From: Candidatus Magasanikiibacteriota bacterium
Lineage (GTDB): Bacteria; Patescibacteriota; Patescibacteriia; Magasanikbacterales; GWA2-37-8
DNA: 64,000 bases
Reading direction: 5' to 3'
NCBI GenBank assembly: GCA_016182085.1
Contig: JACOYB010000004.1
Span: 4,250-68,249 of the forward strand
Shown: in pieces, positions 329 through 62,760 of the stretch
Layout of the letters: the number at the start of each line of letters is the position of its first letter
Numbering within the stretch: position 1 is the first letter of the stretch
Made by a program: the position numbers and the translations under genes
Notes under the pieces: generated by a model
Told to the model about the DNA's origin: nothing
The model's database searches: none
Seen by the model: the letters and a program-made list of their open reading frames with translations, nothing else

Positions 329-342
329 GTTTTTATAGAATT

Positions 343-12207: not shown

Positions 12208-13530
12208 TTATGATTCTAAATCTTCTATATCTTCTCTATATTTATCAGCTTGCGCCATCACATTATCTCCGTAGAAGCGGTAACGAAGATTGGTACCGCC
12301 GGAGAAGTAGCGCATGGCAGCTTTCCATTCGCCGTCACGAGTGCCATCGGCGCCGTTATTTTTGAGCAGTAGTGCCGCGGCCATAAATGCGTCTCGTATA
12401 TCCCACGGGTCAGCCGGACTTTTGCCGGTTATTGCGCTGACTTTGTCTTTGTATCCCATCCAAGTAGAAGGAATAAATTGGGCTGGACCCATAGCGCCTC
12501 CCCAGCCAAGCTGGGAGCCATCCTTATTTTTCATTGGGCAAGAAACCGGAGTAACATCCGGATCACGTCCTAGTTCCTCCGTAATTTTTACAAATGGTTC
12601 TTGGTCACGCGTTGGTTTCATAATAACACGCCAGCCTTTTTCGGGCGGGTCGCCGGGGCGATTGCAGGTGCCAACATTTTTACCCAGATTTGATTCTTGG
12701 GTAAGAATGGCAAGGAGAAAAGCCGCGGATACGCCAGTTTGTCTGTCAGTGGCCTGGGCAATTTCTACCGCTTGTCCGAAAGTGATCTGCTTGCCAACGC
12801 CCAAGAGTTCATAGATACGGCTTCGGATTTCAGCGGCATGTTTTTTACTATCTTGCAAAAGGTTTTGATAAGTAAGTTCCAGTCCCTTGGTTTGTTCGAG
12901 TAGTTGATTTTGTTCCTGTAGTTTTCCGCCCAAAGCGCCCTGCTGAATCCTGGCTACATTTAACAACTTCTCGGCATCGTCTTGCTGATCCTCATAGGCA
13001 ATTTGTTGCTGGTTTAATTGTTTTTGTATTCCTTTTGCTTCCCGTACCAAATCGTTTATGGAAGCGGACAGCCGCTCATAATTTGTTGCTTCCACGAATG
13101 CTTCGCTTAGTCCGTCTTCAACCAAAATATTAAGCAAGAACATTTGTTCGTCTTTTTGTTGGAGCGTACGAAGCATTTTTGCTAGTTCTATACGCAGACC
13201 AGCGATTTTTGATTTATTGGCATCTATGGCTTTGGAAGTTTTTACTAATTTTTGTTCTAAATCTTCAATTTTTACGTTGGTAGCTTTAATTTCCAGGCGC
13301 AGCCTAGCCTCTTCGTTTCTAAGCTGTTTGATTTTATTGGCCAAAGTATTTTTCTCGCCTTTGGTAACGCTGATTTGCTTTTCTAATTCCTTAATTTGAG
13401 ATTCAATTGCCTGCAACTCATTTTCCAGCTGCTCTCGGTTGCTATCTGGGGCGGCTATGCTAATATTAGCCAAAAACAAACTAATCACTGCGAGTAGTAG
13501 TATGGATTTTTTTAACAATGCGTATTTCAT
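12208..13530 (-). CDS. Secreted protein: N-terminal signal/TM, long coiled coil, C-terminal lytic-transglycosylase (SLT)-like domain
   Basis: Heptad-rich 30-230 region; C-terminal ..AILTQESNLG.. catalytic-Glu motif of the SLT/goose-lysozyme-like fold. Confidence 0.6.
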   Translation of the reverse strand: MKYALLKKSILLLAVISLFLANISIAAPDSNREQLENELQAIESQIKELEKQISVTKGEKNTLANKIKQLRNEEARLRLEIKATNVKIEDLEQKLVKTSKAIDANKSKIAGLRIELAKMLRTLQQKDEQMFLLNILVEDGLSEAFVEATNYERLSASINDLVREAKGIQKQLNQQQIAYEDQQDDAEKLLNVARIQQGALGGKLQEQNQLLEQTKGLELTYQNLLQDSKKHAAEIRSRIYELLGVGKQITFGQAVEIAQATDRQTGVSAAFLLAILTQESNLGKNVGTCNRPGDPPEKGWRVIMKPTRDQEPFVKITEELGRDPDVTPVSCPMKNKDGSQLGWGGAMGPAQFIPSTWMGYKDKVSAITGKSPADPWDIRDAFMAAALLLKNNGADGTRDGEWKAAMRYFSGGTNLRYRFYGDNVMAQADKYREDIEDLES

Positions 13531-13692
13531 GAAGTTTTCATTAAAATCAGGCTATTGTAGAGTATCAATTTTTACTATTCTTTTCAAGAAAAATATTGGC
13601 TATCATTCTAATTTTGAAGCGCCAAGCGTAATTATCCACAGCTAATTCTACATAAGGCTTGTTTTTTGTTATAATTGCTAAAGTTAAGATAA

Positions 13693-13714
13693 TTATGAAA
13701 ATACATTTTCATAA
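13693..13714. promoter_or_regulatory. Perfect palindrome TTATGAAAAT-ac-ATTTTCATAA in divergent promoter region
   Basis: 10-bp arms; lies between divergently transcribed 13530(-) and 13743(+) genes. Confidence 0.35.
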
Positions 13715-13742
13715 CTTAATTTATTAATTTATTTTTAAGCTT

Positions 13743-24186: not shown

Positions 24187-24244
24187 ATGCTTGCTGCATT
24201 TAAAAATTAAAACTCTTTATATATATGATACACGAATTTCGCTT

Positions 24245-24263
24245 GTCGGGGTAGTGGGACTTG
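24245..24263. repeat. 19-nt direct repeat duplicating the 3' end of tRNA-Pro (T-loop to discriminator + 2-nt flank); att-like scar
   Basis: GTCGGGGTAGTGGGACTTG identical at 24245-24263 and 24587-24605. Confidence 0.7.
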
Positions 24264-24587
24264 GCCTCGACTCATAATGCCCGCGAGCATTATGGTCTGG
24301 CCACCGCCTCGCCATCCGCGCGAGCGGATATGGCTCCGGCGTTCAAGTCCCAACACGAGCAAAACTTTTTGCTCGTTCTACCTCTCCTCATTTCATTCGT
24401 CGGCCTAATATCGCAATTACAGAACTTCATCGGCTTTACACCGCCATCTCACGGGCAGTGGAACGCGCGCCAGAAGATCTCCAGATAGAGAGTTCCAGTT
24501 CCCATTCCCTTACCTGATTGAGCCAAAGAACAACCAAAAGGCCTCATGTGATGCAGGAATGATAACAGTTCGATATGTTCTGATTCC

Positions 24588-31091: not shown

Positions 31092-31523
31092 CTACGAGGC
31101 GTTCAGGCACCAGATGATGGCCGCTCGGCCCCGCGTGAGGGCCGCGTCTCGATCGGTTAAAGGAGACATCATTAACCGAGATAACAACCGCGGATCATCC
31201 CCTCGCTGCCACCAGTTCAAGAGCCAGGTAGAGTTGGGGAAATCCGCCGGCGGTCGTCGCATCGGCATGACCTCTTTCGCCAGTCGGAAGATCAGTACGG
31301 CCATCGCTTTCTGGACATGCTGTTGAGTCATCTTGTAGTCGGAGACTTTCTCAGGGAGAGGTGACTTGTCCAGGTAGGTCACTGCTTCGGGCAGAGCTTC
31401 TCGCGCCCGTTTCATCAACAGCCGTCTGGTATGTGAGCGGATGTATGCCAGCTCTACTTCACAGTGGTTCTCGGCCAGCACTTCTTGGACGAACTCATTC
31501 AAGAGTTCGAGGATGGATTTCAT
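31092..31523 (-). CDS. Hypothetical 143-aa protein, GC-rich foreign-looking gene
   Basis: GC3-biased codon usage unlike flanking DNA; SD AAGGAA upstream; no recognised domain. Confidence 0.5.
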   Translation of the reverse strand: MKSILELLNEFVQEVLAENHCEVELAYIRSHTRRLLMKRAREALPEAVTYLDKSPLPEKVSDYKMTQQHVQKAMAVLIFRLAKEVMPMRRPPADFPNSTWLLNWWQRGDDPRLLSRLMMSPLTDRDAALTRGRAAIIWCLNAS

Positions 31524-41688: not shown

Positions 41689-44600
41689 ATGCGCGGAGGG
41701 AAATTTCGTCTTTGTCGTGGCTCGGTCACGATTTTTTTGGTTTTTACTGTTGGTATCCTCGTGGCGGGAGTGCTGGCGGTAGTTTTGGTGTTGCGACCAA
41801 AAACATCGGTGCCGGACAAGGGTTTGCCAGGGATATCTAAAACAATGGGCGGATTTGTGAAGACGCCAATTGGCGCAGCTACGCCGTCAGTTAAATTGGA
41901 AAGCCGTGTGCTTGAATTGACACCGGCGACAACTAAAACATTTTTAACGGAATTGGCGCAATCTGATAAATCAACGCAGCATGTCTATGTCCGCTTGGCG
42001 CGGTATCCGCAACTGGTTGATCGGGATACGTTGGAAAAAGCCGGAGTGACGCTTCTGGATTTTCTCGGCCAGCGCGTGTATATGGCCGTTGTTTCTGGTA
42101 AATTCACGGTTGATGATTTGGGCAAACAGCCGCTGGTTGAGGCCTTGGCAAAGATTGAGGATGCCGATAAAGCTCATCAAGATATTTGGAAAGAGAGATT
42201 TTTTGTTTTTGTCGTTAAACCGGGAGAAGATGAAAATGAGCCGGAGATTAATTATGTGCAAAATTCCGACGGTACGTTGAATTTAACGGTAGAATTTTTT
42301 GCCGATGTGGCCGCATCAGTCGCGAGAAATATTTTACAGGACGCTGGCGGCGCTAGAAGCGCCATGGGGCGTGGGCTGTGGGAAGTGAAATCAGCGCCCG
42401 CCTCGGCTGTTCGTCGGTTGGCTGCTTACGATGCAGTGAAACGTGTTGATCCGGGTCCGGCGCCATTTATGGCGGACAACAATCGCAGCCGCGCCGCGCT
42501 TAATGTTGATACCGTGCAGAATTTCACCACGGCCACCAATGTTTTTGGCGGTTTGAGCGGTTTGGGCGTGCAAGCGATTATTTTTGAAAGCATGATGGAT
42601 GAAACGCATGATGATTTTAGTTTGCTTGATGCCGCTAATAATATTATCGGCAGTCGGGTTGCCCGCCATCAGCCATCGGCGCATGCTACTCATGGCAGTC
42701 ATGCTACGCATGTGGCGGGTATTGTCGGCGGCAACGGGTTTATGAGTACAAGCACTATTATTGTTCAATGTCCGGGGACACCGGCGGTCAGCGGCACCCC
42801 TTGGCTGTTCCGCGGCATGGCACCACAGGCCACGCTTCTTGATTATGCCAGTTGGGAACGGACGCCAGACGGCATTCTTGATGCGGTTGCTAATTTTGGC
42901 ACCGAGTTGTCCAATAATTCATACTCAATTACATATGACGGGGATTATAGCGCCGCTATGCAAATCAACGACCGGCTGATCCGCGGTTCGGCCGTTTCAT
43001 CAGGGGGCGTAGCAGTGCCAGGCCGATCGATGATGTTTTCGGCAGGTAATCATGGATCCTATACATATAACGGCGGCGAGCAGGTTGGCTATTTTGCTCT
43101 GACTAAACAAAATAAAAATGACACCATGGTGGGGAATTGGAATGCCTGTGGCGCTACGCTGGCCGGTGGCAACATTGGTACCAGTATGGGTCCTGCTTAT
43201 GACGGGCGTATCAAGCCGGATGTGGTTGCTTCGGGCAGCTATGTTATATCCACGCAAAGCAACAATAATGGTTACACCAACAAATCAGGAACCTCAATGG
43301 CTACTCCGGCAGTGACTGGCGTCAGCGCGCTAGTTCTACAACAATACGCCACGACTTATGGTGTCAATCTTGATGTGAATCCGCCGCGTCCTTCAACTAT
43401 TAAAGCAGTATTAGTTAATACCGCAACTGATATTGACTGGGCAACGGCCGCGCCCGCCGGCTATGTTTATCCGCCCGCCGGCGGTATAACTGGCTGCGCT
43501 CCCGGGCTTCTCAATAATCCGGCATTTTGCGTGGGTGACGGCCCGGTGGTTTTCTTTCCCGGTCCTGACTTTGCGACTGGTTGGGGCATGGTTAACGCCC
43601 AAGCCGCGGTGAATGCGGTGGCGGCGCAAACTTTATTTGAAGATCAGATCGATGTGACTGGACAATTCCGTGGCATACAGTTTAGCGTTGCTTCGGGTAC
43701 AACCAATATGCGCATGACGCTGGCCTGGGATGATGTGGAAGGCAGTCCCGCAATTCTCGATACGAGCCCGCACTTGGTTAATGATCTTGATCTTGAGCTG
43801 ACTGACCCGGCCGGAGTCGTGTTTTACCCTTGGCAGTTGAATCAAGCCATTGCTGATGTTGCGGGTGTGCCATTGCCTAATGAACAGCAATATCCTGGTA
43901 CCGGTATCGTAATTACCACTGCGTTGGCACCGACAGCCGCGCCTATTGACTGCGATGGCAGCGCTGCTGATCCGAATCCATGCATACCCCAGAACGACTA
44001 TCCGGGCACCATTCCGGTAGCGCCCGCCGGCCAGGGGCGTGATCACCTCAACAATGTCGAGCAAGTATTTGTCTCGGCGCCGGTTGCCGGCACGTGGAAC
44101 TTGCGCGTTACCGGCTTCCAGATCCCTGATCCGGCTAATCCCCAGCCATACTCCATCGCCGGTTTGTCGGCCGCCGGCAATGCCTGGCCTGACCTGACGC
44201 CGATTGGCGATGTAACTATTGATGAAGGCGCGACCATGATTATTCCAATTACCGCCGTTGATCCCGAAGGCACGCCAATCACGCTTACCGCCAGCGGTCT
44301 GCCACCGTTTGCCGCCTTTGCCGATTTGGGTGGTGGCGCCGGCACGCTTACTCTGACACCAAGTTGCACTGACACTGGCGTCTATCGCGGTCTGGCTATC
44401 ATTGCTACTGATGGCGGCGCGCCGATAAAATATGAAGGCCAATATATAACCATTACCGTTAATCCGGCCAACTGCGCTCCGGCTATTGATCCGGTTGCCG
44501 ATGTGACTATTACCGAAGGCGATACACTTGATGTGCCGGTGAGCGCTACCGATCCGGAAGGCGATGCGTTGGTTTTGGCCGCTCCTGATTTGCCGCCGTT

Positions 44601-46827
44601 TGCCGCCTTTGCGCCAACAGGTCCGGGTACCGGGGCAATAAATTTGGCGCCAAGTTGCAGTGATGCCGGTGTTTATGCAGACCGGACGATTACTGCCACC
44701 GATAGTGGCGCTCCACCCCAGACAATGACTGAACTCTTTACGATTACCGTCGACGATGATTTGGTTCCGGTGGCTAATGCCGGAGCGGACATCGTTACGT
44801 ACAGCGCCATGGCTACCGTACTCAACGGCGCCGCCAGTAGCGATCCGGAGGCCAAGCCATTGACCTATAGTTGGGCACAGACCGCGGGTACACCGGTGGT
44901 TCTGGCCGGCCTCGATACAGCCACGCCGAGCTTTACGGCACCAACGGTCGCCGCCAGCGAAACGCTTACCTTCACCGTAACCGTTACCGATTCGTGCGCG
45001 CAACCTGCCGCCGACACTGTCGTTGTGACTGTCCGTCCGCTCGTTGATGCTTCTATTATCCTCGATCGTTCCGGCAGTATGATGTGGCCTGTGCCGGCCG
45101 AGGGCGGCGGCACCATTACCAAGATGAACTCATTAAAAAATTCGGTCAATCTTTTCCTCTCGCTCTTTGTTAATGAACGCCCGGGCGCGCCTGATAAGCT
45201 CGGTATTGTTAAGTTTGCCGACAACACGGCGGCGGATACGCAAACAATCCGTCCGCTGGCCGATGTCGAACCGGCGGACATAGCGCCTGCCGGCGCCGTG
45301 AGCGCGCTGATTTCCGGTCTGACCACCGATGCGACCACGTGGATTCGCGGCGGTCTTAATCTTGGATTGGCGGAACTGTTCGGTCCGGCCGGAGTAGCCA
45401 GTCACAAAAAAGCGATGGTACTCTTCTCCGACGGCAAAGAAAATGAATCGCCTTTGACGCAGGATCCGCCGCCGGCGCCGGATGGGGTTTTAAGCGATCC
45501 TGATTTTATCAGTACGTCAGTATATGCGGTCGGCTTTGGCGTCGCTGGCGCGGCCGGCGATACCGGTATTGATGAGGCGCTCTTAACCACCATTCAAAAC
45601 GTCGGTGCCGCCGATGGTTTCGTCAATGTTACCGCCGAGCCGTTGGCGCTTACCAAGTTCTTTGTTGAGGCGTTGGCCACCATGTTCGATCAAACCATAT
45701 CGCTTGATCCGGTGACCACGTTATCCGGAGCCGGGTCATCGTTCCAGTCGGCTACCATCAGTAGCGCCGATCGCCAGGCCACGTTCGTGCTTACTTGGAA
45801 TCAGCCGCAGACCGATGCGCTCGACCTTAAACTGCGTACGCCCGAAGGTGAACTGATTACTACCGCCGACGCCGCGCCGGGAACACCGATTGAATATGTG
45901 AGTGGCGCGACGTTCAAGTACTTTATCGTGCGTTTTCCGCTTACCGGTCGTTTGCGCGGCATTCACGCCGGCACTTGGCAGATGGAAGTCAGTCGCAATC
46001 AGGCGCCCGCCAATCAGCTGGCGACCTTTGCCACGGCGGTCATGGTAGATAGTCCTAGTTTGCGCTGGATGCCTTCAATACCATCATCTATGCTGTTTAC
46101 CGGGGATGAATTCGGCATCCGGACATCGCTGCTTGAAAACGGCAAGCCGATTGCCAATGCCAAAGTGTTTGCCGACATTGAACGCCCAATAGTCAACCCG
46201 CATCAGGTTGTGGTCACGGCCAAGCTCGATCCGCGCCAAGCGTATATTCCATCTGTTCTCAAAACCGATCCGCCGTCGCCGTATGACCAGAAATTGCTTC
46301 AGATTATTAAAAACGCCCGCGGTAAAAATCCATTTCCTGTGAGCAAGGAGCGGGTGCAACTCTTTGATGACGGTAAGCATAATGATGGCAAAGCGAACGA
46401 TGGCACGTATGGCGCCAATCTAACTAAAACCAATGTTGGCGGTGTCTACCGCATTCATCTGCGCGCCCAAGGTAAAAGTTCGCAGTACGGGGCATTTACC
46501 CGTGAGTCCAGCCGGAGTATTACCGCTATCATCAAAGCTAGTCCCAAGGCATCGAATGTTACCATTGCGCCGATTACCAAAGCTTCAGCCCGTGGGACCA
46601 TATACCAATTGACGGTGACACCGAAAGACAGCCAAGGAAACATAGTTGGCGCTGGCTATGCTAGTATGGTTAAAGTAAGTGGCGCCGATATCAAGCCGAT
46701 TGAAGCGGTAGAAGACAAGACCAATGGCAGTTACACACTGCGTTTTACGGCCGACCCGCGGGCCATTCTGACTGTCCGGTTTGGTGATGAGAAGCTTGCC
46801 AGTATGGTAGTTGAAAAATCTCAATAG
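41689..46827 (+). CDS. Giant (1712 aa) secreted subtilisin-like serine protease (S8) with cadherin-like/Ig-like repeats and a von Willebrand factor A domain
   Basis: Signal/TM; HGSHATHVAGIVGG (His) and GTSMATPAVTG (Ser) motifs; three ~90-aa repeats (DPEGTPITLTASGLPPFAAF..); VDASIILDRSGSM vWA MIDAS motif. Confidence 0.85.
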   Translation: MRGGKFRLCRGSVTIFLVFTVGILVAGVLAVVLVLRPKTSVPDKGLPGISKTMGGFVKTPIGAATPSVKLESRVLELTPATTKTFLTELAQSDKSTQHVYVRLARYPQLVDRDTLEKAGVTLLDFLGQRVYMAVVSGKFTVDDLGKQPLVEALAKIEDADKAHQDIWKERFFVFVVKPGEDENEPEINYVQNSDGTLNLTVEFFADVAASVARNILQDAGGARSAMGRGLWEVKSAPASAVRRLAAYDAVKRVDPGPAPFMADNNRSRAALNVDTVQNFTTATNVFGGLSGLGVQAIIFESMMDETHDDFSLLDAANNIIGSRVARHQPSAHATHGSHATHVAGIVGGNGFMSTSTIIVQCPGTPAVSGTPWLFRGMAPQATLLDYASWERTPDGILDAVANFGTELSNNSYSITYDGDYSAAMQINDRLIRGSAVSSGGVAVPGRSMMFSAGNHGSYTYNGGEQVGYFALTKQNKNDTMVGNWNACGATLAGGNIGTSMGPAYDGRIKPDVVASGSYVISTQSNNNGYTNKSGTSMATPAVTGVSALVLQQYATTYGVNLDVNPPRPSTIKAVLVNTATDIDWATAAPAGYVYPPAGGITGCAPGLLNNPAFCVGDGPVVFFPGPDFATGWGMVNAQAAVNAVAAQTLFEDQIDVTGQFRGIQFSVASGTTNMRMTLAWDDVEGSPAILDTSPHLVNDLDLELTDPAGVVFYPWQLNQAIADVAGVPLPNEQQYPGTGIVITTALAPTAAPIDCDGSAADPNPCIPQNDYPGTIPVAPAGQGRDHLNNVEQVFVSAPVAGTWNLRVTGFQIPDPANPQPYSIAGLSAAGNAWPDLTPIGDVTIDEGATMIIPITAVDPEGTPITLTASGLPPFAAFADLGGGAGTLTLTPSCTDTGVYRGLAIIATDGGAPIKYEGQYITITVNPANCAPAIDPVADVTITEGDTLDVPVSATDPEGDALVLAAPDLPPFAAFAPTGPGTGAINLAPSCSDAGVYADRTITATDSGAPPQTMTELFTITVDDDLVPVANAGADIVTYSAMATVLNGAASSDPEAKPLTYSWAQTAGTPVVLAGLDTATPSFTAPTVAASETLTFTVTVTDSCAQPAADTVVVTVRPLVDASIILDRSGSMMWPVPAEGGGTITKMNSLKNSVNLFLSLFVNERPGAPDKLGIVKFADNTAADTQTIRPLADVEPADIAPAGAVSALISGLTTDATTWIRGGLNLGLAELFGPAGVASHKKAMVLFSDGKENESPLTQDPPPAPDGVLSDPDFISTSVYAVGFGVAGAAGDTGIDEALLTTIQNVGAADGFVNVTAEPLALTKFFVEALATMFDQTISLDPVTTLSGAGSSFQSATISSADRQATFVLTWNQPQTDALDLKLRTPEGELITTADAAPGTPIEYVSGATFKYFIVRFPLTGRLRGIHAGTWQMEVSRNQAPANQLATFATAVMVDSPSLRWMPSIPSSMLFTGDEFGIRTSLLENGKPIANAKVFADIERPIVNPHQVVVTAKLDPRQAYIPSVLKTDPPSPYDQKLLQIIKNARGKNPFPVSKERVQLFDDGKHNDGKANDGTYGANLTKTNVGGVYRIHLRAQGKSSQYGAFTRESSRSITAIIKASPKASNVTIAPITKASARGTIYQLTVTPKDSQGNIVGAGYASMVKVSGADIKPIEAVEDKTNGSYTLRFTADPRAILTVRFGDEKLASMVVEKSQ

Positions 46828-46852
46828 TATTTATTTATAATCTTCATACTAT

Positions 46853-47554
46853 ATGCCGGAACCAAAAAAGATACTCCTCGAAGAGCCATATAAGGTTTCT
46901 ACCATTCCAGTTAAACCGTGGAGCAAAAACGCGCTTGAATCCTTGCGCGGTCAGGTGAGCGACTTGTTATTTAACACCGGCGCTGTCGACCGACCGCGCG
47001 GACCGATTTTACTTGATACTACCACTACGACGCCGAAGAGGCCGCCGCGTGGACCGGTGGTCGGCGAACCTCCCGTCGAACCGGGTGCAGGCGAACCGGC
47101 AGGCGGCGGAAATCCTCTGGGCGGAGGAAATAACCAACAGCCCGACCAGCCAGCGCCGCGTGTTATTCCGTGCGACAATGTGATTATCGATGAGAGCGAT
47201 GGGGCTGGCGGCAATCCTCGTCGAGGTGGTGGCAACGGCGGTGGCATGCCGCCCGGAGCTGGCCAGCAGCCACGCGAGCGAATCGTTGAAATCCCCGAGG
47301 ATCTACAGCCATGTATATTTACCCAGCATCACACCGCGGATAACGGTGAAGGGTGGGTGGTGCTTGTCCATATCGAGGGAGGGCGCATGAAGCGAGTAGT
47401 TGTCATTGATGAGAAAGGTAACCAGCGATACATTCATCAGAATGTCGGCAAGATAATCAAGGTGCATAAAGACAATAATAAAATAACCGTGGTCGGCGAC
47501 AAGAAAACTTGTATTTACTTCATTGTCACAAATCAACTGGTTTGTTATTCCTAA
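46853..47554 (+). CDS. Hypothetical protein with Gly/Pro-rich low-complexity centre
   Basis: ORF immediately downstream of the protease, shared terminator. Confidence 0.45.
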   Translation: MPEPKKILLEEPYKVSTIPVKPWSKNALESLRGQVSDLLFNTGAVDRPRGPILLDTTTTTPKRPPRGPVVGEPPVEPGAGEPAGGGNPLGGGNNQQPDQPAPRVIPCDNVIIDESDGAGGNPRRGGGNGGGMPPGAGQQPRERIVEIPEDLQPCIFTQHHTADNGEGWVVLVHIEGGRMKRVVVIDEKGNQRYIHQNVGKIIKVHKDNNKITVVGDKKTCIYFIVTNQLVCYS

Positions 47555-54144: not shown

Positions 54145-57100
54145 ATGAAAAAACGCCTGGGTTTTTCCCTCCTCATCGCCGCATTTAGCTTGGCGATCTA
54201 TGTATCTTTTTTGGCTCCAAGCAAAGTTGCGGCTGATTCAAATCTGGTTGAAGACCCGGGCTTTGAAACGAGCATGTCTAACTTTGAACCAAATCAAGAC
54301 GGTACATCCGTATCTCTTACGAGCATTAGTCCAATTAACGGATCCCGAAGTTTGGTAGTTGGCACTACTGGTTATGGTGATAGTGTATTATGGCAAGGCC
54401 GGGATATTTCTACCTTTGCTACCAAAAGATCAAATCAATTTACCGCTTCAGTGCGTATTCGTTCCACCGTTGGTTCGGCTTCAGAGATTTCTTTTTGCGG
54501 TTTGGTAGATTACGCAACTGGCGAAGGCGTTCGCAATTGTAAAGAAGTAACAGGTTCGGTTGGTGACAAAGGCACAGTCAATCTTTCCTTTGCTCTTGAT
54601 AACAGCCGAGATTTAGACAGAGTCCGTGTTGGTATTTTCCAAGAAGGAAGCGCCGCCTTACGTGAAGTTTTAATTGATGACTTGTCAGTGATATTAACCG
54701 GTATTTCCATCGGTTCGCCAGCTCCTACTCCGGTAAATGGTGCGTGTGGATCTTCAAATAACGCCACTGTTGCCAGCGCTCCAACCACCAACCTCTGTTC
54801 ATCCGGTTCTGCCAGCACGGTTGCGGGTTCCGGTCCATGGACTTGGAGCTGCGCCGGATCAAATGGCGGTACAACCGCCAGCTGCAGCGCTCAAATGATT
54901 TCTACTTCAAATCCAGTAAATGGTACTTGCGGCGCGGCTAATAACACCCAAGTTTCTTCAGCTCCAACTAACTATCTGTGTTCATCGGGTACAGCCAGTA
55001 CTGTTTCTGGTTCCGGCCCATGGACATGGAGTTGTTCGGGTACAAACGGTGGTACCAACTCTAGTTGTAGCGCTCAAACAATTACTACCCAAAATCCAGT
55101 AAACGGTGTTTGCGGCTCGGCTAATAATACAACAGTTTCAACAGCCCCAACGACTGGTCTTTGTTCCGTTGGCTCAGCCAGCACGGTGGCCGGTTCCGGC
55201 CCATGGACATGGAGCTGCGCCGGTCAAAACGGCGGCACAACCGGTAGTTGTAGCGCTCAAAAAACTATTTCTTCCACACCGCCGCCTGTTTCAAGCGCAA
55301 ATAATTTAATTGAAGAACCTAGTTTTGAAACCACTCTTTCTAATTTTGAACCAAATCAAGCCGGCACCTCTGTTAATGTTACAAATGTTAATCCCATTAG
55401 CGGCGCTAGAAGTTTATCTATAACTACCGGCGGCTACGGCGATAGTATTCTTTGGGCAGGCCGGGACATTTCTACTTTTACTACCAAAAGATCTTCTCAA
55501 TTTACCGGTTCTATCCGTATTCGTTCTACCGTTGCTTCTGCCTCCGAAATTTCATTCTGCGGTTTAGTTGATTACGCAACCGGATCCGGCGTACGTAATT
55601 GTACTAATGTTAGTGGTTCTGTTGGCGATAAAGGTACAGTTAATCTTTCCTTTGCTCTTGATAGCGCTCGTGATTTAGACAGGGTCCGTGTTGGTATTTT
55701 CCAAGAAGGCAGCTCTCCTCTTAGAGCAGTTATGCTTGATGATGCTTCCGTAGTTTTAGCAGGTATTTCTCCTCCGATTCCAGTAAGCGGAGCTTGCGGA
55801 TCATCTAATAACACCACTCTTTCATCTGCCCCAACTACCAATCTTTGTGCCAGTGGCAGCCCGAGCTCTGTATCCGGTTCGGGTCCTTGGAGTTGGACAT
55901 GTAATGGTTCAAATGGCGGCACTACTGCTAGCTGTACTGCCCAAAGAACTATTACCCAAACTCCGGTAAATGGCGTATGTGGTTCAGCCAATAACACAAC
56001 AGTTTCAACTGCTCCAACTACCAATCTGTGTTCTTCCGGTTCTGCCAGCACGGTTGCCGGTTCTGGCCCATGGACTTGGTCTTGCGCCGGTTCAAATGGC
56101 GGCACAACCGGTAATTGTAGCGCTCAGCTTTCCGGATCAACTACAATTCCACCTTCAACTAGATTTACAATCGGTCAACGCGTGCAAACAACAGCTAATT
56201 TAAATGTTAGAGCCACTCCAAATACCGCAGGTACTTTGCTTGGCACACAAACTTCCGGTTCGTTAGGCACAGTAACAGGCGGGCCAGTAGCCCAGGGAGG
56301 CTATAATTGGTGGGGTATAAACTACGATGCGGGAGCAGACGGATATTCGGTAGAAAATTTCTTAACCGCCTATTCATCTCCAAATCCTCCTCCAACTCCT
56401 CCACCGGGCGGCGCCATAACTTATCCGGCCTTTAATTTAAACGATCCGGCAGATGCCCCGCTTATTAAATTTGCAGAAACATGGGCAAGAAATTGGAATT
56501 TTGAAGGACATAATGTTGATCCTAACTTTAGCGGCAATAGCGGCAATTGGAATTATACCGAAACCACTTATGAGCCATGGCTTTTTGATCGTGCTTCCGT
56601 TGGTTACTATTTATATAAAAGAACTACCGACCCTACGCAAAAAGCTCGCTGGTATCAGCAATTTTTATCCGACTTTGCTTATTATAGAAATCATATAGAT
56701 TCAGCCGGTATATTTACTCCAAAAGGATATGGCGATACAAAATATAGTTATATCACTCCATTCTTACTTTACGAAAAAGAAACCGGAGACACTCAATATC
56801 GTCCAATTGCCCAAAGAATCTATAATGCATGGATGAGTGATTTTAGTAGCACATATTCACCAAATGGAAACGATCTTTGGACAGAACGTGAAATTGGTCT
56901 GGCTTTGGAAGCGGCCGTGTCTTGGTACGAAATTACTGGTGATTCTTCCGCGCTTACTCGCGCCAATGCTTTGATATCTCAATGGACTGTGGTGGCCAAC
57001 GCAGGCGGAGGCGTACCTCTTACTACCGTAGATCGCCATGAAGGTGGCGGAGGAACACAACTCATCACAAGTCCTTGGATGAGTGGATTATACTTCCAAG

Positions 57101-59904
57101 CTGCCCGCAGACTTTATGCTATAACTGGCAATACAGAAATATTGCAACAAGTAACTCGTTATGCAGATTGGATGGAACAGCACGCCTATTTTGATGCCGG
57201 TGTTGTAGACGATCCATATGCCGGAATAACGGCTGCTTACTATTTGGTTGGTCCTACAGGTCCTTACACTCCGGAAACTCCAAGCGCAGGCGACCTAGAC
57301 CACTGTTTAGATGTTTCAGGAATAGTATCGTTTGCCATTAGCGCCAAACAGCTTCTTGGTCAATCTGCTACTGCGCTTACCGCTCGCCATGCTCAACTAC
57401 GAACTTGCGCGGTATATGCATTTAATGATGCCACTCGCACCACCATTACTCTTCCTAAATATCGCGTAAATCCTCCTCGCAAATTTAATTGGTGGATGCG
57501 TTCTACCCTTGGATATAATGGTCCAACCAGTCCTGTCACTCCTCCACCAACTACTTTAGTAAATGGCGTTTGTGGTTCTGCAAACAACACTACCGTTGCT
57601 TCTGCTCCAACCACCAACCTTTGTTCCGCTGGAACAGCTAGTGCGGTCGCCGGTTCCGGCCCATGGACTTGGTCTTGCGCCGGATCAAATGGCGGCACCA
57701 CTGCCAACTGCAGCGCTCAAAGAACAGCTTCAACTCCGCCAACTAGTTATTCTTTATCCGTATCTCTTGGTGGTAGTGGTACCGTAGTTTCAACTCCGAC
57801 TGGTATTAACTGTGGCGCTGCCTGTACTGCCAACTTTACGAGCGGTACTTCGGTTACTCTTACCGCAACTCCAGCAACCGGAAATACATTTATTGGTTGG
57901 AGCGGTGGAGTTTGTAGCGGTACTGGAACCTGTGTCGTTTCAATGACTGCCGTTAGAAGCGTTGGCGCGACATTTGCAGCAAATACTACCCAAACTTCCG
58001 TAAGACCTTTGGCTACTGCCAATCCGCGCGTTTTGTTAAATGATGCTACGACCGTATCAAGATTACAAAATGCTTTGTCTACAAATGCGGCTGGCGCGGC
58101 CAGATTTAGAACCATGGTAAACAATGAACTTGCAAGTCCGGGCACAAACTATGCCTTCCAAGGATGGTTTGCCGCTTTAATGTATCGTCTCACCGGTACA
58201 GCGAGCTATGGAACCTTTGCCGTAAATAAAGTAGATACATTTGTTAATGCCGAAATGGCCAGAATAAACGCCGGCCAACGTCCGCTTGTCGCTGGTGATA
58301 GTTTCTTAGAAGTGGGAGATATGGTCGGCGATGTGGCCCTTGTATATGACTGGGCAAACAATTTACTTACTCCAGCTCAAAAGACAACCTGGGTTAACTA
58401 CATGAATTTAGTTTTAAATAATTTATGGGGTAATCCGGACGCAGTTCGTTGGGGCGGAGTTTCTTATCCTTGGTCCGGCTGGTCATTAAATGATCCTTAC
58501 AACAATTATTATTATTCATTCTTGCAAGCCACCATGTTGACTGGTTTAGCTACTTACGGAGATAACCCTCAAGCGCAACAGTGGTTAAATAAATTTTATA
58601 ACGATAAAATCATCGCTCAATTATTGCCAGCCTTCAATATTATGCCAGGCGGCGGATCTCGTGAAGGTACGGGTTATGGCACGGCTCTGGCCAGATTATT
58701 CAAGTTATACTTCTGGTGGGAAAAATCAACCGGTGTAAATATTGCCAACCAAACTCCGCACACTTTGGGCACAATGTTCTGGTTTACCCATTCCATCGTT
58801 CCATCACTTGATAAATTGGTTCCAACCGGCGATCATTCTCGCGATGAAACTGCCGAGTTGTATGATTACCATCGTGATTTACTTCAGAATTTAATTTCTC
58901 TCTATCCAAACGAACAAATTTCTGGAGCGGTAAAACAACTATTGTCCCAGTCCAATGTACAAAGAATGCAGTTTAGCGTAAGTTACTGGTCGGACTTTGT
59001 AAATGATTGGCCATCCATTACTGCCAGACCTTTAACTACTCTTAACACCACCTATTTTGGAACCGGTACTGGCAACTTCTATACCCGTTCTTCTTGGAAT
59101 AATAATGCCATAATGGTACACATGATGGCTGGCCCTTACGACCAAAGCCATGCTCATAGGGATCAAGGTTCAGTTCTGCTTAATTCTGCCGGCGCTTGGT
59201 TATTTGATGATGCAAACCGCCGCTCTTCTAGCGGTATAGAATTAGACGAAGAGATGCATAACTTGGTACGCTTCCGTTCCGGTGGAAGTACTGTCAGACA
59301 AGTAGAAAGCGCTGCCCCATCCGAAGTTTTGGCTTTATCTGATGGAACTTTGTTCTCTTATGAACTGGCCAATACTAAACCGATTTATAACAACAAACCG
59401 GAAGTAGTAAAATCAGAAAGAGAAATGGTCTTTATTAAACAGGGCGCGGTTGTGCTGTTTGATAGATCTGCTGCCAACTCATCTGCGGTTTCCAGAATTT
59501 TCCAGTTACAAATGTCAACCGCTCCGTTTATCTCTGGCAACCGATTAACCTTTACCAGTGGTGCGCAAAGAGCCGATGTGTGGAGACTCTCTCCTGCCAA
59601 TGTTCCATGGACAACCGTGCCTGTATTTAGCGGTCAACGAGCAGAAGCTGTAGACAACAACGGCACTCAATCTTTGTTCCTGCATGTTATAGGTGTAAAC
59701 AGCCAAGTAACATCGGTAATCTCTGATAATACGGCCACCGAAACCGGTGCTCGCATCACCTTTAGTGATGGAACCGTGGCTACCGTACGCTTTAGCAATG
59801 CTGGTCGCGGCGGTACATTAAACATGGTAAGTGCCTCTGGCCAAACCTTGTATAATGCCGCTCTACCTATAACTGTAAATACATTCCCGCAATATCAACA
59901 ATAA
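54145..59904 (+). CDS. Giant (1919 aa) secreted surface protein with a heparinase II/III-like lyase domain
   Basis: Signal peptide. Two ~180-aa carbohydrate-binding-like modules, seven ~55-aa four-Cys repeats (PVNGxCGSANNTTVSxAPTTNLCSSGSASTVAGSGPWTWSCAGSNGGTT), an SH3b-like segment and a B-repeat-like beta domain. C-terminal part has SHAHRDQGSVLL (HxHxDxxS) and surrounding features of heparinase II/III. Confidence 0.8.
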   Translation: MKKRLGFSLLIAAFSLAIYVSFLAPSKVAADSNLVEDPGFETSMSNFEPNQDGTSVSLTSISPINGSRSLVVGTTGYGDSVLWQGRDISTFATKRSNQFTASVRIRSTVGSASEISFCGLVDYATGEGVRNCKEVTGSVGDKGTVNLSFALDNSRDLDRVRVGIFQEGSAALREVLIDDLSVILTGISIGSPAPTPVNGACGSSNNATVASAPTTNLCSSGSASTVAGSGPWTWSCAGSNGGTTASCSAQMISTSNPVNGTCGAANNTQVSSAPTNYLCSSGTASTVSGSGPWTWSCSGTNGGTNSSCSAQTITTQNPVNGVCGSANNTTVSTAPTTGLCSVGSASTVAGSGPWTWSCAGQNGGTTGSCSAQKTISSTPPPVSSANNLIEEPSFETTLSNFEPNQAGTSVNVTNVNPISGARSLSITTGGYGDSILWAGRDISTFTTKRSSQFTGSIRIRSTVASASEISFCGLVDYATGSGVRNCTNVSGSVGDKGTVNLSFALDSARDLDRVRVGIFQEGSSPLRAVMLDDASVVLAGISPPIPVSGACGSSNNTTLSSAPTTNLCASGSPSSVSGSGPWSWTCNGSNGGTTASCTAQRTITQTPVNGVCGSANNTTVSTAPTTNLCSSGSASTVAGSGPWTWSCAGSNGGTTGNCSAQLSGSTTIPPSTRFTIGQRVQTTANLNVRATPNTAGTLLGTQTSGSLGTVTGGPVAQGGYNWWGINYDAGADGYSVENFLTAYSSPNPPPTPPPGGAITYPAFNLNDPADAPLIKFAETWARNWNFEGHNVDPNFSGNSGNWNYTETTYEPWLFDRASVGYYLYKRTTDPTQKARWYQQFLSDFAYYRNHIDSAGIFTPKGYGDTKYSYITPFLLYEKETGDTQYRPIAQRIYNAWMSDFSSTYSPNGNDLWTEREIGLALEAAVSWYEITGDSSALTRANALISQWTVVANAGGGVPLTTVDRHEGGGGTQLITSPWMSGLYFQAARRLYAITGNTEILQQVTRYADWMEQHAYFDAGVVDDPYAGITAAYYLVGPTGPYTPETPSAGDLDHCLDVSGIVSFAISAKQLLGQSATALTARHAQLRTCAVYAFNDATRTTITLPKYRVNPPRKFNWWMRSTLGYNGPTSPVTPPPTTLVNGVCGSANNTTVASAPTTNLCSAGTASAVAGSGPWTWSCAGSNGGTTANCSAQRTASTPPTSYSLSVSLGGSGTVVSTPTGINCGAACTANFTSGTSVTLTATPATGNTFIGWSGGVCSGTGTCVVSMTAVRSVGATFAANTTQTSVRPLATANPRVLLNDATTVSRLQNALSTNAAGAARFRTMVNNELASPGTNYAFQGWFAALMYRLTGTASYGTFAVNKVDTFVNAEMARINAGQRPLVAGDSFLEVGDMVGDVALVYDWANNLLTPAQKTTWVNYMNLVLNNLWGNPDAVRWGGVSYPWSGWSLNDPYNNYYYSFLQATMLTGLATYGDNPQAQQWLNKFYNDKIIAQLLPAFNIMPGGGSREGTGYGTALARLFKLYFWWEKSTGVNIANQTPHTLGTMFWFTHSIVPSLDKLVPTGDHSRDETAELYDYHRDLLQNLISLYPNEQISGAVKQLLSQSNVQRMQFSVSYWSDFVNDWPSITARPLTTLNTTYFGTGTGNFYTRSSWNNNAIMVHMMAGPYDQSHAHRDQGSVLLNSAGAWLFDDANRRSSSGIELDEEMHNLVRFRSGGSTVRQVESAAPSEVLALSDGTLFSYELANTKPIYNNKPEVVKSEREMVFIKQGAVVLFDRSAANSSAVSRIFQLQMSTAPFISGNRLTFTSGAQRADVWRLSPANVPWTTVPVFSGQRAEAVDNNGTQSLFLHVIGVNSQVTSVISDNTATETGARITFSDGTVATVRFSNAGRGGTLNMVSASGQTLYNAALPITVNTFPQYQQ

Positions 59905-59917
59905 AAATATAGCAGTT

Positions 59918-59958
59918 TAAAAACTAAAGGCCGCCCTCCAGGCGGTTTTTAGTTTTGG
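59918..59958 (+). terminator. Rho-independent terminator
   Basis: aaaactaaaGGCCGCC-ctcca-GGCGGtttttagtttt. Confidence 0.7.
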
Positions 59959-59968
59959 TTTAATAGGG

Positions 59969-59997
59969 TTGACAAAGAGGTTCTTGTATGATAATGT
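59969..59997 (+). promoter_or_regulatory. Sigma70-like promoter TTGACA-(15-17)-GATAAT/TAATGT
   Basis: Seen directly, upstream of small GC-rich peptide genes. Confidence 0.45.
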
Positions 59998-60078
59998 CTG
60001 TTATCTTGTATGACTTATAGCGCCTTATTATAGGCGCCTAAAGCCCGCTGCAAGATCAACAACCGGGAGAGTAACTGA

Positions 60079-60219
60079 ATGCTGTTTAGCGCTTCTGATC
60101 TGATTTCTCATCTCTGGCTGGAGGTCAAGGCACAGTCCAAGAAGTCCCTGATCTACGGGATCGTGACTGCGATCCTTCTAGGGCTCGGGGTAAAGTTTGT
60201 GATTTGGCTCTTCTTGTAG
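60079..60219 (+). CDS. Small hydrophobic peptide (46 aa, one TM helix), GC-rich foreign-looking
   Basis: SD GGGAGA; distinct codon usage; followed by 10-bp-stem hairpin terminator. Confidence 0.4.
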   Translation: MLFSASDLISHLWLEVKAQSKKSLIYGIVTAILLGLGVKFVIWLFL

Positions 60220-60249
60220 AAGGTGAGTCAATCGCAACGGTTGTCAGTG

Positions 60250-60287
60250 GCACGGCGGCTCAAGCAGGCCGCCGTGCACCCCATTTT
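60250..60287 (+). terminator. Hairpin terminator GCACGGCGGC-tcaagcag-GCCGCCGTGC + ACCCCATTTT
   Basis: Perfect 10-bp GC stem. Confidence 0.5.
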
Positions 60288-60492
60288 AATATAAATCAAA
60301 AAACTGCCGTAGTAGGCAGTTTTTTGATTATAAAAAATTATGCTTATTCGGCTCTTGAAAAAATGGTTAAATTATGGTAGTATTATCTTTCTTGCATAGT
60401 GCTCGGTGGCACCTTTAGAAAGGTGCGCCAAGCCGGTTGCAAGTGTTCGTAAACAACTAGCGCCCGTATTGTGCGGGTGGAGGAATGGTCGC

Positions 60493-60690
60493 ATGATCAC
60501 CTATGATAAGTGGTACAAGCCGTTTGGTTCCGCGCTCGTGTTTCTGGTCATCGCCGTTACGGCGCTGACCATTGCTCATGGGGATCCAAGTTTCCTGTAT
60601 TCCTTGGGTCAGTGGTGGCAGGAGACCCGCTGTCATCTGATCTCTGGCTTTCCTACGGCCATGTGCCCCTACGCACCGCTGTCGTTCTAA
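60493..60690 (+). CDS. Small membrane protein (65 aa, one TM helix, Cys/Trp-rich tail), GC-rich
   Basis: Strong SD GGAGGAA 8 nt upstream; ORF could extend to 60406. Confidence 0.4.
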   Translation: MITYDKWYKPFGSALVFLVIAVTALTIAHGDPSFLYSLGQWWQETRCHLISGFPTAMCPYAPLSF

Positions 60691-60807
60691 CAGGGGCGAT
60701 GCAGAAGGTTGTTCCACGGATTTATGGGCGAAGCTCTGCGCGAGTCAAGCCCCACGCCTTTTATACATCAATGGTATGGTGTCTAGAAGAAGTGAAATAT
60801 TTTCTAT

Positions 60808-61290
60808 ATGGTTCTTGATAAGAAAAATGAATTAAAGAATTTTATTCTTATTCTTCCCAATATTCGCAGCGGCCACAATGTGGGCGCAATTTTTCGTACG
60901 GCTGATGGCGCGGGCGCAGACAAATTATATCTAACCGGTTATACGCCATGTCCGCCTCATACCCAAGTAGACAAAGTATCGCTGGGAGCGGAAAAATGGA
61001 TGCCGTGGGAATATCACAAGCAAGCCGGAAAATTACTTAAAGAATTAAAGAGAGTAGGGTATAATATAGTGGCTCTTGAACAAACGAAAACCAGCCAGAA
61101 CATATTTAAGTGGAAACCGGTGTTTCCATTGGCGCTGGTTTTAGGAAATGAAAAGACAGGCGTATCCAAAACACTGCTAAAATATTGCGATGAGGCTTTG
61201 GAAATTCCTATGCGCGGAAAGAAAAATAGTTTAAATGTCAGCGTGGCCGCCGGTGTGGCGATGTATCACATTTCAAATTCTAAATACTAA
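60808..61290 (+). CDS. SpoU/TrmH-family RNA 2'-O-methyltransferase
   Basis: ..HNVGAIFRTADGAG.. and ..LVLGNEKTGVS.. SPOUT motifs. Confidence 0.8.
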   Translation: MVLDKKNELKNFILILPNIRSGHNVGAIFRTADGAGADKLYLTGYTPCPPHTQVDKVSLGAEKWMPWEYHKQAGKLLKELKRVGYNIVALEQTKTSQNIFKWKPVFPLALVLGNEKTGVSKTLLKYCDEALEIPMRGKKNSLNVSVAAGVAMYHISNSKY

Positions 61291-61295
61291 ATACA

Positions 61296-62018
61296 ATGCA
61301 ATTCACCATACAACTCTTCAATCATTTGTATAAAAATTTACCGCCACTGGTGCCCGAGTCGGTTGTGTTGGGTATGCAACAGGCGCTTGAAAATTTAGAA
61401 AATAATTCCAATATTAGTCTAGAAGAAATAGAAGACATAATGATTCAGTTTGGTTATCAAGTTTGGGCGTGGAATCAAGCATATAAATACTTTTTGACTG
61501 CAGCCACCGAACAGTTTGGCGATCATTTTTTACTGCCGCGCCTGAGCGATGAGTTGCGCAATAGATACCTATCTTTTCAAACGTATGGCGGTACGTTACA
61601 AGATCTGCATTCTGGGCGTCCGGCATCATTTTTTACGTCCGAGCAGCGAGCTGAACTCTGCGAAAGATTGGTGGAAATGAGACAACATGTAAAGGAATAT
61701 GTAAATAGGGATGTAGTAGGGGTAAACCAAAATTCTTACCTTGCCAAAGTAGAAGAATATAAAGATTTACTGGAAAAAATTAAGTTTAATTTGGAATCCC
61801 TGCGTAATTTTGTGGAAAAGGAAGAAGACGGCTCAACACTAGTTAGTGAAATTAATGCAAAAATTAAAGATTTTGAACATAGTTTATGTTTGCTTGGGTC
61901 AGAAATGGATTATGAGGCGGTGTGTCAGGCCCAAGATTTTTTTGTTGGAAGAAAAGTGGAATTAAGCCGAATGAAGGGTATTAATATTCCTATGCAAATA
62001 GACTTCTTTAATTCTTAA
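61296..62018 (+). CDS. Hypothetical protein
   Basis: ORF only. Confidence 0.4.
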   Translation: MQFTIQLFNHLYKNLPPLVPESVVLGMQQALENLENNSNISLEEIEDIMIQFGYQVWAWNQAYKYFLTAATEQFGDHFLLPRLSDELRNRYLSFQTYGGTLQDLHSGRPASFFTSEQRAELCERLVEMRQHVKEYVNRDVVGVNQNSYLAKVEEYKDLLEKIKFNLESLRNFVEKEEDGSTLVSEINAKIKDFEHSLCLLGSEMDYEAVCQAQDFFVGRKVELSRMKGINIPMQIDFFNS

Positions 62019-62037: not shown

Positions 62038-62760
62038 TTATATTTTCTCCGCTGTTATATAACCTAATTCGCTATTTTCAATATAGCCTTTCCAAAAATC
62101 TTCTCCCATTTTTATTTTTCCTTCATCTGAAATTATTGGTGCATGAGAAGTAATATTTTGAAAGCCAGCTTCCTTAAGTAATTGTTTTATTGTTTCTTCT
62201 TTAAAGTAAGTTGCATGAAGAGATAAAATAAATTTTCCTTGATTGTATAGGTCAATTTGCATGTTTGCCCCATCTATATTCTCATCTAAAGTTTTTTTTG
62301 CTCCAAATTTTTCTAAGTTACTTCCTGAAGGTTTGTCGAAAACTAATACTATTTTGCCATCTGTATTTAATGTATTAAAAAGACGTTGGAAGTAATTAGA
62401 AAGAGTAAGTGTATCAGTGGCATAATTGAGTACAAACGGGCTGTTTATAAAATCAGCTTTGGGTAATTCATCTTTAAAAATATCTGCTAATCTATACTCT
62501 GTTTTTTCAGATTTTATTTTATTTGCAAGTCCGATTTGTTTTTCTGAATTGTCAATACCAATAACTTTTACTGCGCCTTGACTTGCTAGTTGTTCTGTAA
62601 AAAATCCATCTCCACAACCTAAATCTAGTACAGTTTTTCCATCAAGTCGCTCAGCTAATTGTAAAACAGTTGGAAGAATAGAGTATTTTTTATCTGGTTT
62701 TATATCACTTTCACTATATTTCTCTGCTATTTCATTATATCTATTTTCCTGGAAAGGCAT
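62038..62760 (-). CDS. Class I SAM-dependent methyltransferase
   Basis: VLDLGCGDGFFT motif I. Confidence 0.7.
   Translation of the reverse strand: MPFQENRYNEIAEKYSESDIKPDKKYSILPTVLQLAERLDGKTVLDLGCGDGFFTEQLASQGAVKVIGIDNSEKQIGLANKIKSEKTEYRLADIFKDELPKADFINSPFVLNYATDTLTLSNYFQRLFNTLNTDGKIVLVFDKPSGSNLEKFGAKKTLDENIDGANMQIDLYNQGKFILSLHATYFKEETIKQLLKEAGFQNITSHAPIISDEGKIKMGEDFWKGYIENSELGYITAEKI

Follow-up and report, generated by a model that had tools for sequence, protein, structure and literature searches.

The stretch analysed here (the window, 64,000 nt of contig JACOYB010000004.1) belongs to a metagenome-assembled genome (MAG) of an uncultured groundwater bacterium, Candidatus Magasanikbacteria, within the Candidate Phyla Radiation (CPR, Patescibacteria). 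About 900 nt of it separate the terminator of a giant surface-protein gene from a gene for a SpoU/TrmH-family RNA methyltransferase (SpoU), and this interval, hereafter the slot, holds two tandem units, A and B (59969-60800). Each unit has a sigma-70-like promoter, a Shine-Dalgarno sequence (SD), an open reading frame (ORF) for a protein with a single transmembrane (TM) segment (46 aa in A, 65 aa in B) and 3' hairpins (Table 1), and the predicted RNAs are ~290-325 nt (A) and ~385 nt (B) long. A first-pass annotation of the same DNA had proposed two independent, promoter-driven small genes at this place, and the proposal holds: promoter B was called by a consensus scan and orthologous units have promoters scoring 10-11 of 12 at the equivalent place, while promoter A was read from the sequence only and went uncalled by the scan, its best -10 hexamer (GATAAT) standing at a suboptimal 15-nt spacing.

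Results

A structured 5' leader shared by the units

Units A and B align over their promoters and the first ~50 transcribed nucleotides, with TCTTGYAT, a hairpin and AAGCCSGYTGCAAG following one another in both: as far as promoter and 5' leader go, the two are paralogues, a relation that the first-pass annotation missed. Two copies of the pattern TCTTGYAT-N20-50-TGCAAG are present in the window, where 0.05 would be expected. In the predicted folds of both leaders CUUGYA and UGCAAG pair as a helix, P1, around an inner hairpin, and the structure of leader B is also recovered by a consensus fold with its counterparts in two related loci, the third unit of locus L071 (L071u3) and L159. A covariance model (R1) built from six leader copies and run against 540 kb from 84 related loci matched only the window (two copies), L071 (three), L074/L080 (one) and L159 (one), with E-values of 1e-10 to 1e-15. 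In a small sample of seven distinct sequences from four genomes, 91.8% of the alignment cells at paired positions can pair, against 29-47% when the partners are slid, a count inflated by the fitting of these sequences to R1. Both sides change in 6 of the 14 pairs, and the covariation score is reached by none of 500 shuffles.

The hairpin in the single unit of L163 has the architecture of the leader and a different sequence; R1 does not score it, even with filters off, and we therefore treat it as analogous and not as demonstrably homologous. The distance from the first base of the -35 hexamer to the leader start is 33-36 nt in each of the eight units (35 nt in unit A), which puts the leader 4-7 nt past a -10 element at 17-nt spacing; the hairpin would therefore be expected right at the 5' terminus of the transcript, ~0-3 nt from its predicted start. 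The first 10 nt of leader A (TCTTGTATGA, 60004-60013) are also found 22 nt upstream (59982-59991), within the -10 region of the promoter, and this duplication may be the reason for the odd spacing between the -35 and -10 elements of promoter A.

The leader belongs to no described RNA family in Rfam. Against Rfam 15, only three tRNAs reach the gathering threshold in the window, and searches of 58500-62000 at E<=10 and of L071, L074, L163 and L159 at E<=0.5 returned sub-threshold, terminator-like matches only, those to the terminator between the units included. A DNA scan with the leader pattern (TCTTGYAT-N20-50-AAGCCNGNTGCAAG) gave 53 matches in GTDB species genomes and 15 in IMG/VR, all of which proved to be due to chance or to an unrelated phage coding gene and lack the promoter and hairpin context. 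Across paralogues with unrelated ORFs, the internal loops AUAGUG and CAAGCC are kept together with the sequence of the hairpin, which suggests specific recognition rather than a generic stem that protects the end of the RNA.

The ORFs and their evolution

The available evidence supports the view that ORFs A and B code for protein. The GC content at third codon positions (GC3) is 0.70 in ORF A and 0.68 in ORF B, against 0.31-0.48 in the core genes of the window, in agreement with the first-pass claim that composition and codon usage are unlike those of the host. This excess is frame-specific (GC3 > GC1 > GC2; 0.49/0.30/0.70 for GC1/2/3 in ORF A), with GC3 values of 0.58-0.79 among the unit ORFs. 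GC periodicity is significant at p<=0.0004 in four of the eight (p=0.0004 against nucleotide shuffles in ORF A, p<=0.0001 in three ORFs of relatives) and borderline in ORF B (p=0.048). On the Kyte-Doolittle scale the 19-residue window at the C terminus of ORF A (residues 28-46) reaches 2.43, the N-terminal window of ORF B reaches 2.19, and six of the eight unit products exceed 2.1, so that both single-TM assignments of the first-pass annotation stand, as does the strong GGAGGAA ahead of ORF B. Its description of the 65-aa protein as rich in cysteine and tryptophan was a small overstatement: there are three Trp and two Cys in 65 residues, and in the orthologues Trp is conserved and Cys is not.

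The alignment of ORF B with L071u3 and with protein P0122 (on L159) is free of gaps over 65/66 codons, the ratio of nonsynonymous to synonymous substitution rates (dN/dS) is ~0.24, and the three have in common the motifs MxxYDKWYKPF and WWQE. Between ORF B and L071u3 the proportion of nonsynonymous differences (pN) is 0.39 and that of synonymous differences (pS) 0.71, which is saturated; dN is 0.55, against 0.09 for SpoU in the same pair of genomes. In the closer pair, L071u3 and L159, dN/dS is 0.64, against 0.065 for the adjacent SpoU. Nucleotide identity between unit B and L071u3 is 54% in the coding sequence, 70% in the 5' untranslated region (UTR) and 65% in the 3' UTR. By these comparisons the proteins are fast-evolving, either weakly constrained or diversifying, and the promoters, leaders and 3' trailers are better conserved than the coding parts. 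A single-sequence AlphaFold2 (AF2) model of ORF B (predicted local distance difference test score, pLDDT, 70) places helices at residues 3-29 and 33-51, a generic two-helix hairpin only.

For unit A the orthologue is L071u2, where promoter, leader and 3' hairpin (the latter with sequence changes) are kept while the product has 88 aa instead of 46. Read by eye, both ORFs have an SK(K/R) motif ahead of the C-terminal TM segment. The 10-bp-stem hairpin that the first-pass annotation had taken for the terminator of the 46-aa gene is a perfect stem, directly followed by ACCCCATTTT / ACCCCAUUUU, and a canonical terminator comes after it (60294-60329). Among orthologues GCUC/GAGU, the inner stem of the 3' hairpin of unit B, is replaced by GGC/GCC, and the 15-nt motif CAAGCCCCACGCCTT (60746-60760) is identical in L071u3 (L071 ~7933-7947) and L159 (~464-478), where the coding regions are only 54% identical. 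C-rich motifs related to it, ACCCCATTTTA and CAACCCCCTTTACA, stand 3' of hairpins in other units. Between unit B and SpoU we found no canonical terminator.

The products are orphans in all the collections searched. None of the seven unit products tested has a Pfam-A match at E<0.01, and PHROG and PADLOC gave no matches for them. A word-index protein search with ORF B returned the query itself only, and a HMMER search of 1.84 billion representative proteins returned P0122 as the sole true homologue, with one spurious repeat protein besides; ORF A is not on record, by exact look-up, in a collection of 15 billion proteins.

A variable slot in related genomes

SpoU homologues at 75-88% identity are numerous (the product of the window gene is 100% identical to a Candidatus Magasanikbacteria MAG protein at NCBI), and their loci were compared. 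The neighbours of the slot are core genes whose order is kept across relatives: RuvC, giant gene (where present), slot, SpoU, a 240-aa gene and PfkB. A terminator equivalent to that of the giant gene is found in all of them. Between RuvC and SpoU, the giant gene is followed by three units in L071-L073, by two in the window and by one in L074/L080, L076 and L163; it abuts SpoU, leaving the slot empty, in L082/L161/L162 and L160. Loci L081, L083 and L088 are without the giant gene, and other cargo occupies the interval in L165 (a PD-(D/E)XK_3 protein) and L167 (a 132-aa AT-rich membrane protein). Variability in the clade thus extends all the way from RuvC to SpoU and includes the giant surface-protein gene, which some genomes have and others lack. 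The comparison of related genomes that the first-pass annotation had called for shows a slot with zero to three units, which makes them accessory, and the orthologues of peptide B have a GC3 of 0.72, not the codon usage of the host.

The units are built alike: a promoter, a 5' stem-loop, a CA-rich linker, a GGAGG-type SD, a GC-rich ORF and a 3' hairpin, usually with a terminator. The plus-strand promoters of the relatives' units (9-11 of 12) lie at the equivalent position, and their ORFs encode 27 (L163), 66, 88, 97 and 111 aa. Public gene calls in the slot are inconsistent, with opposite-strand ORFs called in L071-L073 and most unit ORFs missed or mis-called. In a more distant relative, L091, a GC3-rich (0.70) ORF for a membrane protein of ~77 aa (225-470, minus strand) with its own GGAGG SD and terminator hairpin lies ~550 nt upstream of SpoU, on the opposite strand.

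Table 1. Positions in the window of the two units, their elements and the genes and terminators that border them
Feature	Position	Strand	Basis
Giant surface-protein gene, 1919 aa (upstream neighbour)	54145-59904		InlB B-repeat and GH127-like matches
Bidirectional intrinsic terminator of the giant gene; left slot border	59920-59956	.	Inverted repeat I2, 16-nt arms between A and T runs; minus-strand terminator-scan match
Promoter A: TTGACA (59969-59974); -10 candidates GATAAT (59990-59995, 15-nt spacer) and TAATGT (59992-59997, 17-nt spacer)	59969-59997	+	Read from sequence
Leader A: P1 CUUGUA/UGCAAG around P2 and GCGCC-loop-GGCGC hairpin, then CA-rich linker	60004-60070	+	Covariance model R1, 65.1 bits, E=6e-15
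SD of ORF A: GGGAGAG, 7 nt ahead of ATG	60065-60071	+	Read from sequence
ORF A, 46 aa, ATG start, C-terminal TM segment	60079-60219	+	ORF list; GC periodicity
3' hairpin of unit A: perfect 10-bp stem (60250-60259 with 60268-60277), 8-nt loop	60250-60277	+	Inverted repeat I6
Bidirectional intrinsic terminator between units A and B	60294-60329	.	Inverted repeat I1, 15-nt arms 100% complementary, A run before, T run after
Promoter B: TTGAAA-17 nt-TAGTAT, extended TG	60355-60383	+	Promoter scan; conserved in L071u3 and L159
Leader B: P1 CUUGCA/UGCAAG around GGCACCUUU-aga-AAGGUGC hairpin, then linker GUGUUCGUAAACAAC	60390-60457	+	Covariance model R1, 48.6 bits, E=2e-10
Hairpin GCACCTTT-aga-AAGGTGC, present as the first-pass annotation had it	60409-60427	+	Read from sequence
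Second 5'-UTR hairpin of unit B: CGCCCG-loop-CGGGUG, abuts SD	60461-60479	+	Three-orthologue consensus fold, in which one pair shows a compensatory change (C-G to U-A)
SD of ORF B: GGAGGAA, 7 nt ahead of ATG	60479-60485	+	Read from sequence
ORF B, 65 aa, ATG start: N-terminal hydrophobic helix, then second, amphipathic helix (predicted)	60493-60690	+	Gapless orthologue alignment; AF2 model
3' hairpin of unit B: GGGC..GCUC-loop-GAGU..GCCC, with invariant motif CAAGCCCCACGCCUU	60726-60760	+	Minimum-free-energy fold
Last hairpin before SpoU start: ACAUCA-loop-UGGUGU	60765-60782	+	Read from sequence; L071u3 counterpart ACACCAC-uuag-GUGGUGU
SpoU/TrmH-family RNA methyltransferase; right slot border	60808-61290	+	Pfam PF00588, E=1.6e-38

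Beyond the slot, a gene for an AT-rich S-adenosylmethionine-dependent methyltransferase (62038-62760, minus strand, GC 0.30, GC3 0.15) is inserted between the 240-aa gene and PfkB, which are adjacent in L071, L074 and L076.

Other GC3-rich orphans

Synonymous sites between ORF B and L071u3 are saturated and both ORFs nevertheless have a GC3 of ~0.7, so the bias is maintained and does not look like the fading signature of an import; recent import from a GC-rich phylum is accordingly an unlikely cause of it. Two further causes were considered and rejected. Translational selection does not fit the GC3 of rpoB and rpoC (0.39-0.42), with no other core gene of the window above 0.50, and whole-mRNA structure does not fit either, as folding is exceptional in unit A only.

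Further orphans of this composition lie in the window. One (8817-9305, plus strand, within region 8626-9400) encodes 162 aa, and its GC3 is 0.83 counted from the ATG or 0.72 for the longer ORF; it comes with a TTGACA promoter of its own, a terminator and a ~190-nt 5' UTR with a hairpin, TCATTCCCGC-cata-GCGGGAATC. It has 24 homologues at 55-75% identity, of which the three with a source name are Candidatus Magasanikbacteria, the others being metagenome proteins. The second (31092-31523, minus strand, GC3 0.69) encodes 143 aa just upstream of rpoB and has a consensus TTGACA promoter (~31578), a short leader and a terminator. Neither has a Pfam, PHROG or PADLOC match. Orphan cassettes of high GC3 therefore seem to be a class in these genomes.

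A third GC3-rich orphan, an ORF of 52 aa (24330-24488, GC3 0.66), lies in a GC-rich stretch (24230-24500) beside a tRNA cluster. The 12-mer TCGGGGTAGTGG stands both at 24246 and at the end of tRNA-Pro (24589), a sign that part of a tRNA may have been copied. A 6-kb GC-rich block (41689-47554, up to 59% GC in a window of 43% GC) contains a 1712-aa ORF (41689-46827, GC 0.54, GC3 0.53) and, next to it, a 233-aa ORF (GC3 0.53) without a Pfam match. In L074 the rpiB-ileS slot holds a second tandem array (12740-13720), absent from L076, of two paralogous Cys-rich ORFs (89 and 91 aa, GC3 0.71 and 0.67), each preceded by a conserved leader of its own (TTTTTAGrTGGGAwTTCCTAT...hairpin...TATGGGA) and followed by a trailer hairpin (CCCCGATTCGTCGGGG / CCTCGATTCGTCGAGG).

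Discussion

The explanation that we favour, at slightly better than even odds (roughly 0.55), is that the slot carries a fast-diversifying accessory array of genes for small membrane or secreted proteins, tandemly multiplied in a hot spot beside the giant surface-protein gene and provided with a common structured 5' leader. The two units of the window would be self-contained expression cassettes for single-pass membrane proteins, possibly signal-anchored or secreted, and each predicted transcript would consist of a ~50-nt stem-loop leader, a CA-rich linker, a strong SD, a small GC3-rich ORF and 3' hairpins. As paralogues, the units would have spread by tandem duplication to between zero and three copies per genome within a narrow clade of Candidatus Magasanikbacteria. 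The proteins would act at the cell envelope, perhaps in concert with the giant surface protein encoded next to them.

The common leader probably stabilises or co-regulates these mRNAs. As a post-transcriptional control or stability element, it could protect the 5' end against 5'-dependent RNases, serve as the site of a common regulator, or do both. In B-type units the first codons (YDKWYKPF) may also pair with the SD and AUG. The ompA, ermC and aprE leaders are 5'-terminal stem-loops that stabilise bacterial mRNAs; like them, the leader described here would place a stable hairpin a few nucleotides from the predicted 5' end and upstream of a strong SD; a stabilising effect of it would be putative. 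Unlike in those stabilisers, the hairpin sequence and internal loops are conserved here.

Several points weigh against this explanation. The alignment that carries the pairing counts was fitted to R1 itself, and the transcription start sites are placed by promoter geometry only. At the protein level ORF A and the 88-aa ORF of L071u2, the orthologous unit, are not significantly similar (BLASTP E=12); unit A might therefore be in decay or function as an RNA. Whole-unit folding is exceptional in unit A alone (z=-6.0 against shuffles), the other units ranging from -1.4 to -3.4 against a host control mean of -1.2. Pairing of the SD is no better than in shuffled sequences (see below), so that translational gating would be putative. 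The GC3 bias is left unaccounted for, and the link to the giant surface protein is one of adjacency alone.

The first-pass annotation had likened the pair to type I toxins, which are hydrophobic proteins of 20-60 aa encoded by mRNAs of 150-400 nt with 5' stem-loops, terminators and long-distance 5'-3' interactions, and are controlled by antisense RNAs of 60-200 nt and by SD/anti-SD pairing (PMC8594479). The units would then be type I toxin-antitoxin-like modules, that is, structured, silent mRNAs for membrane toxins, neutralised by an antisense or trans-acting RNA that escaped detection here. We consider this unlikely, in spite of a real resemblance to toxin mRNAs such as hok, aapA1, zorO and ldr (PMC8594479): the units are stand-alone and intergenic, often tandem and narrowly distributed, with predicted RNAs of ~290-390 nt, a structured 5' end, terminator stem-loops and a small hydrophobic ORF (46 aa in unit A, 27 aa in L163). 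The bidirectional terminators upstream of each unit could also end an antisense RNA. However, the defining antitoxin was looked for and not found: in four genomes a consensus scan detected no minus-strand promoter within or facing the units, except for one 9/12 site in the AT-rich promoter of L071 unit 3.

As to the structural features of toxin mRNAs, the SD is predicted to be paired (P>=0.8) in most units, but the 8-10 of 11 nt paired are reached by 15-48% of dinucleotide shuffles. In B-type units the consensus fold has a conserved hairpin in which SD and AUG pair with codons 5-11, a lead and not evidence. The same applies to the predicted 5'-3' pairing of the A type, which differs by one compensatory change between unit A (CAACCG/CGGUUG) and L071u2 (CAACCA/UGGUUG); such long-range pairing is limited to these two units and L163, is not above shuffles in most units and is absent from the B type. 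After this shuffle control, we gave less weight to SD sequestration and 5'-3' locking as signs of a toxin mRNA. In size, unit A fits the type I range (46 aa, ~290-325 nt) and unit B is a borderline case (65 aa, ~385 nt). The products of all homologous or analogous units have 27-111 aa, and those of 65-111 aa, with considerable portions outside the membrane, exceed the usual 20-60 aa (PMC8594479); a dN/dS of 0.24-0.64 indicates weak constraint, and no Rfam family of type I antitoxins reaches threshold. In the literature searched, nothing connects CPR or Patescibacteria with type I systems or small ORFs. Any toxicity of the products would be putative.

Secreted bacteriocin-like or effector peptides offer another reading of the array, which we hold to be rather unlikely. 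B-type products would consist of an N-terminal Sec signal and a hypervariable mature part, and the tail-anchored A-type products would be immunity-like or helper proteins. Class II bacteriocin and peptide-pheromone loci combine a conserved N-terminal leader with a variable mature peptide and small membrane immunity proteins. The slot resembles them in its tiny genes, arrayed together with their conserved regulatory flanks, in its small TM proteins, and in a conserved N-terminal region followed by a hypervariable, fast-evolving remainder; ORF B and the unit of L074 share only the hydrophobic ALTIAH segment (BLASTP E=0.006). Within it, ALTIA|H is a candidate signal-peptidase site. The adjoining giant surface protein and the episymbiont lineage would also suit such peptides. 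But the cleavage site was read from the sequence by eye, and the corresponding residues of L071u3, VIF|R, make a poor site for signal peptidase. Unlike class II loci, the slot shows no double-glycine leader, no ABC transporter, processing, kinase or regulator gene nearby and no sequence similarity to such systems or to any Pfam family. The predicted helical hairpin of ORF B would be compatible with a protein that stays in the membrane, and secretion is only putative.

The possible RNA function of unit A leads to the proposal that the units, or at least unit A, are non-coding or dual-function structured RNAs with incidental ORFs. It draws on the exceptional fold of unit A, on UTRs that outconserve the ORF region and on the wholly different ORFs of the orthologous A-type units. 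GC-rich intergenic islands in AT-richer genomes are moreover a known signature of structured RNAs (PMC8632094). This proposal is very unlikely in view of the frame-specific GC3 excess of unit A and most other units, of an SD at the right distance from every ORF, and of a B-type ORF that keeps frame, length and hydrophobicity over saturating divergence; the lack of an Rfam match and the unremarkable folds of the other units also speak against it.

Finally, the first-pass suggestion of phage morons, or of mobile-element remnants received horizontally from a GC-richer donor, accords with autonomous promoter-ORF-terminator units of foreign composition whose site is empty in other genomes, but is highly improbable for units that, unlike morons, share a structured leader, multiply in tandem and lie between chromosomal core genes with no phage, integrase or transposase genes in the flanks, that have no PHROG or PADLOC match and no relatives in IMG/VR, INPHARED phages or PLSDB plasmids, and whose GC3 persists at saturated sites, while the named homologues of the 162-aa orphan are confined to Candidatus Magasanikbacteria. 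Integron cassettes were likewise rejected, the units having their own promoters and no attC-like core having been seen (no integrase search was made).

Both the proteins and the leader are new in the sense that they fall outside described families; autonomous cassettes for small membrane proteins with structured leaders are known. Little is understood of the small genomes of CPR bacteria, in which hardly any small proteins or regulatory RNAs have been annotated. A bolder extension of the accessory-array explanation, which we regard as doubtful, would make the ~50-nt leader a new class of cis-regulatory RNA, recognised by a protein, an RNA or a ligand, that gates a hypervariable repertoire of GC3-rich small proteins beside giant surface-protein genes in CPR episymbionts. 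Magasanikbacteria would then carry distinct GC3-rich orphan cassettes in intergenic hot spots, each family with its own leader and trailer, as an undescribed way to generate and maintain accessory small proteins; in a variant of this idea, the units may be the first type I-like toxin system in CPR.

The persistence of GC3-rich codon usage in lineage-restricted orphans contrasts with the AT-richness usual for orphan genes, and points to a process behind it, be it selection on RNA, biased conversion at hot spots or a separate gene pool. If the units merely encode accessory membrane proteins, the gain would be a modest one for annotation. A leader that really is a control element would provide a handle on how episymbionts regulate fast-evolving envelope proteins next to a giant surface protein.

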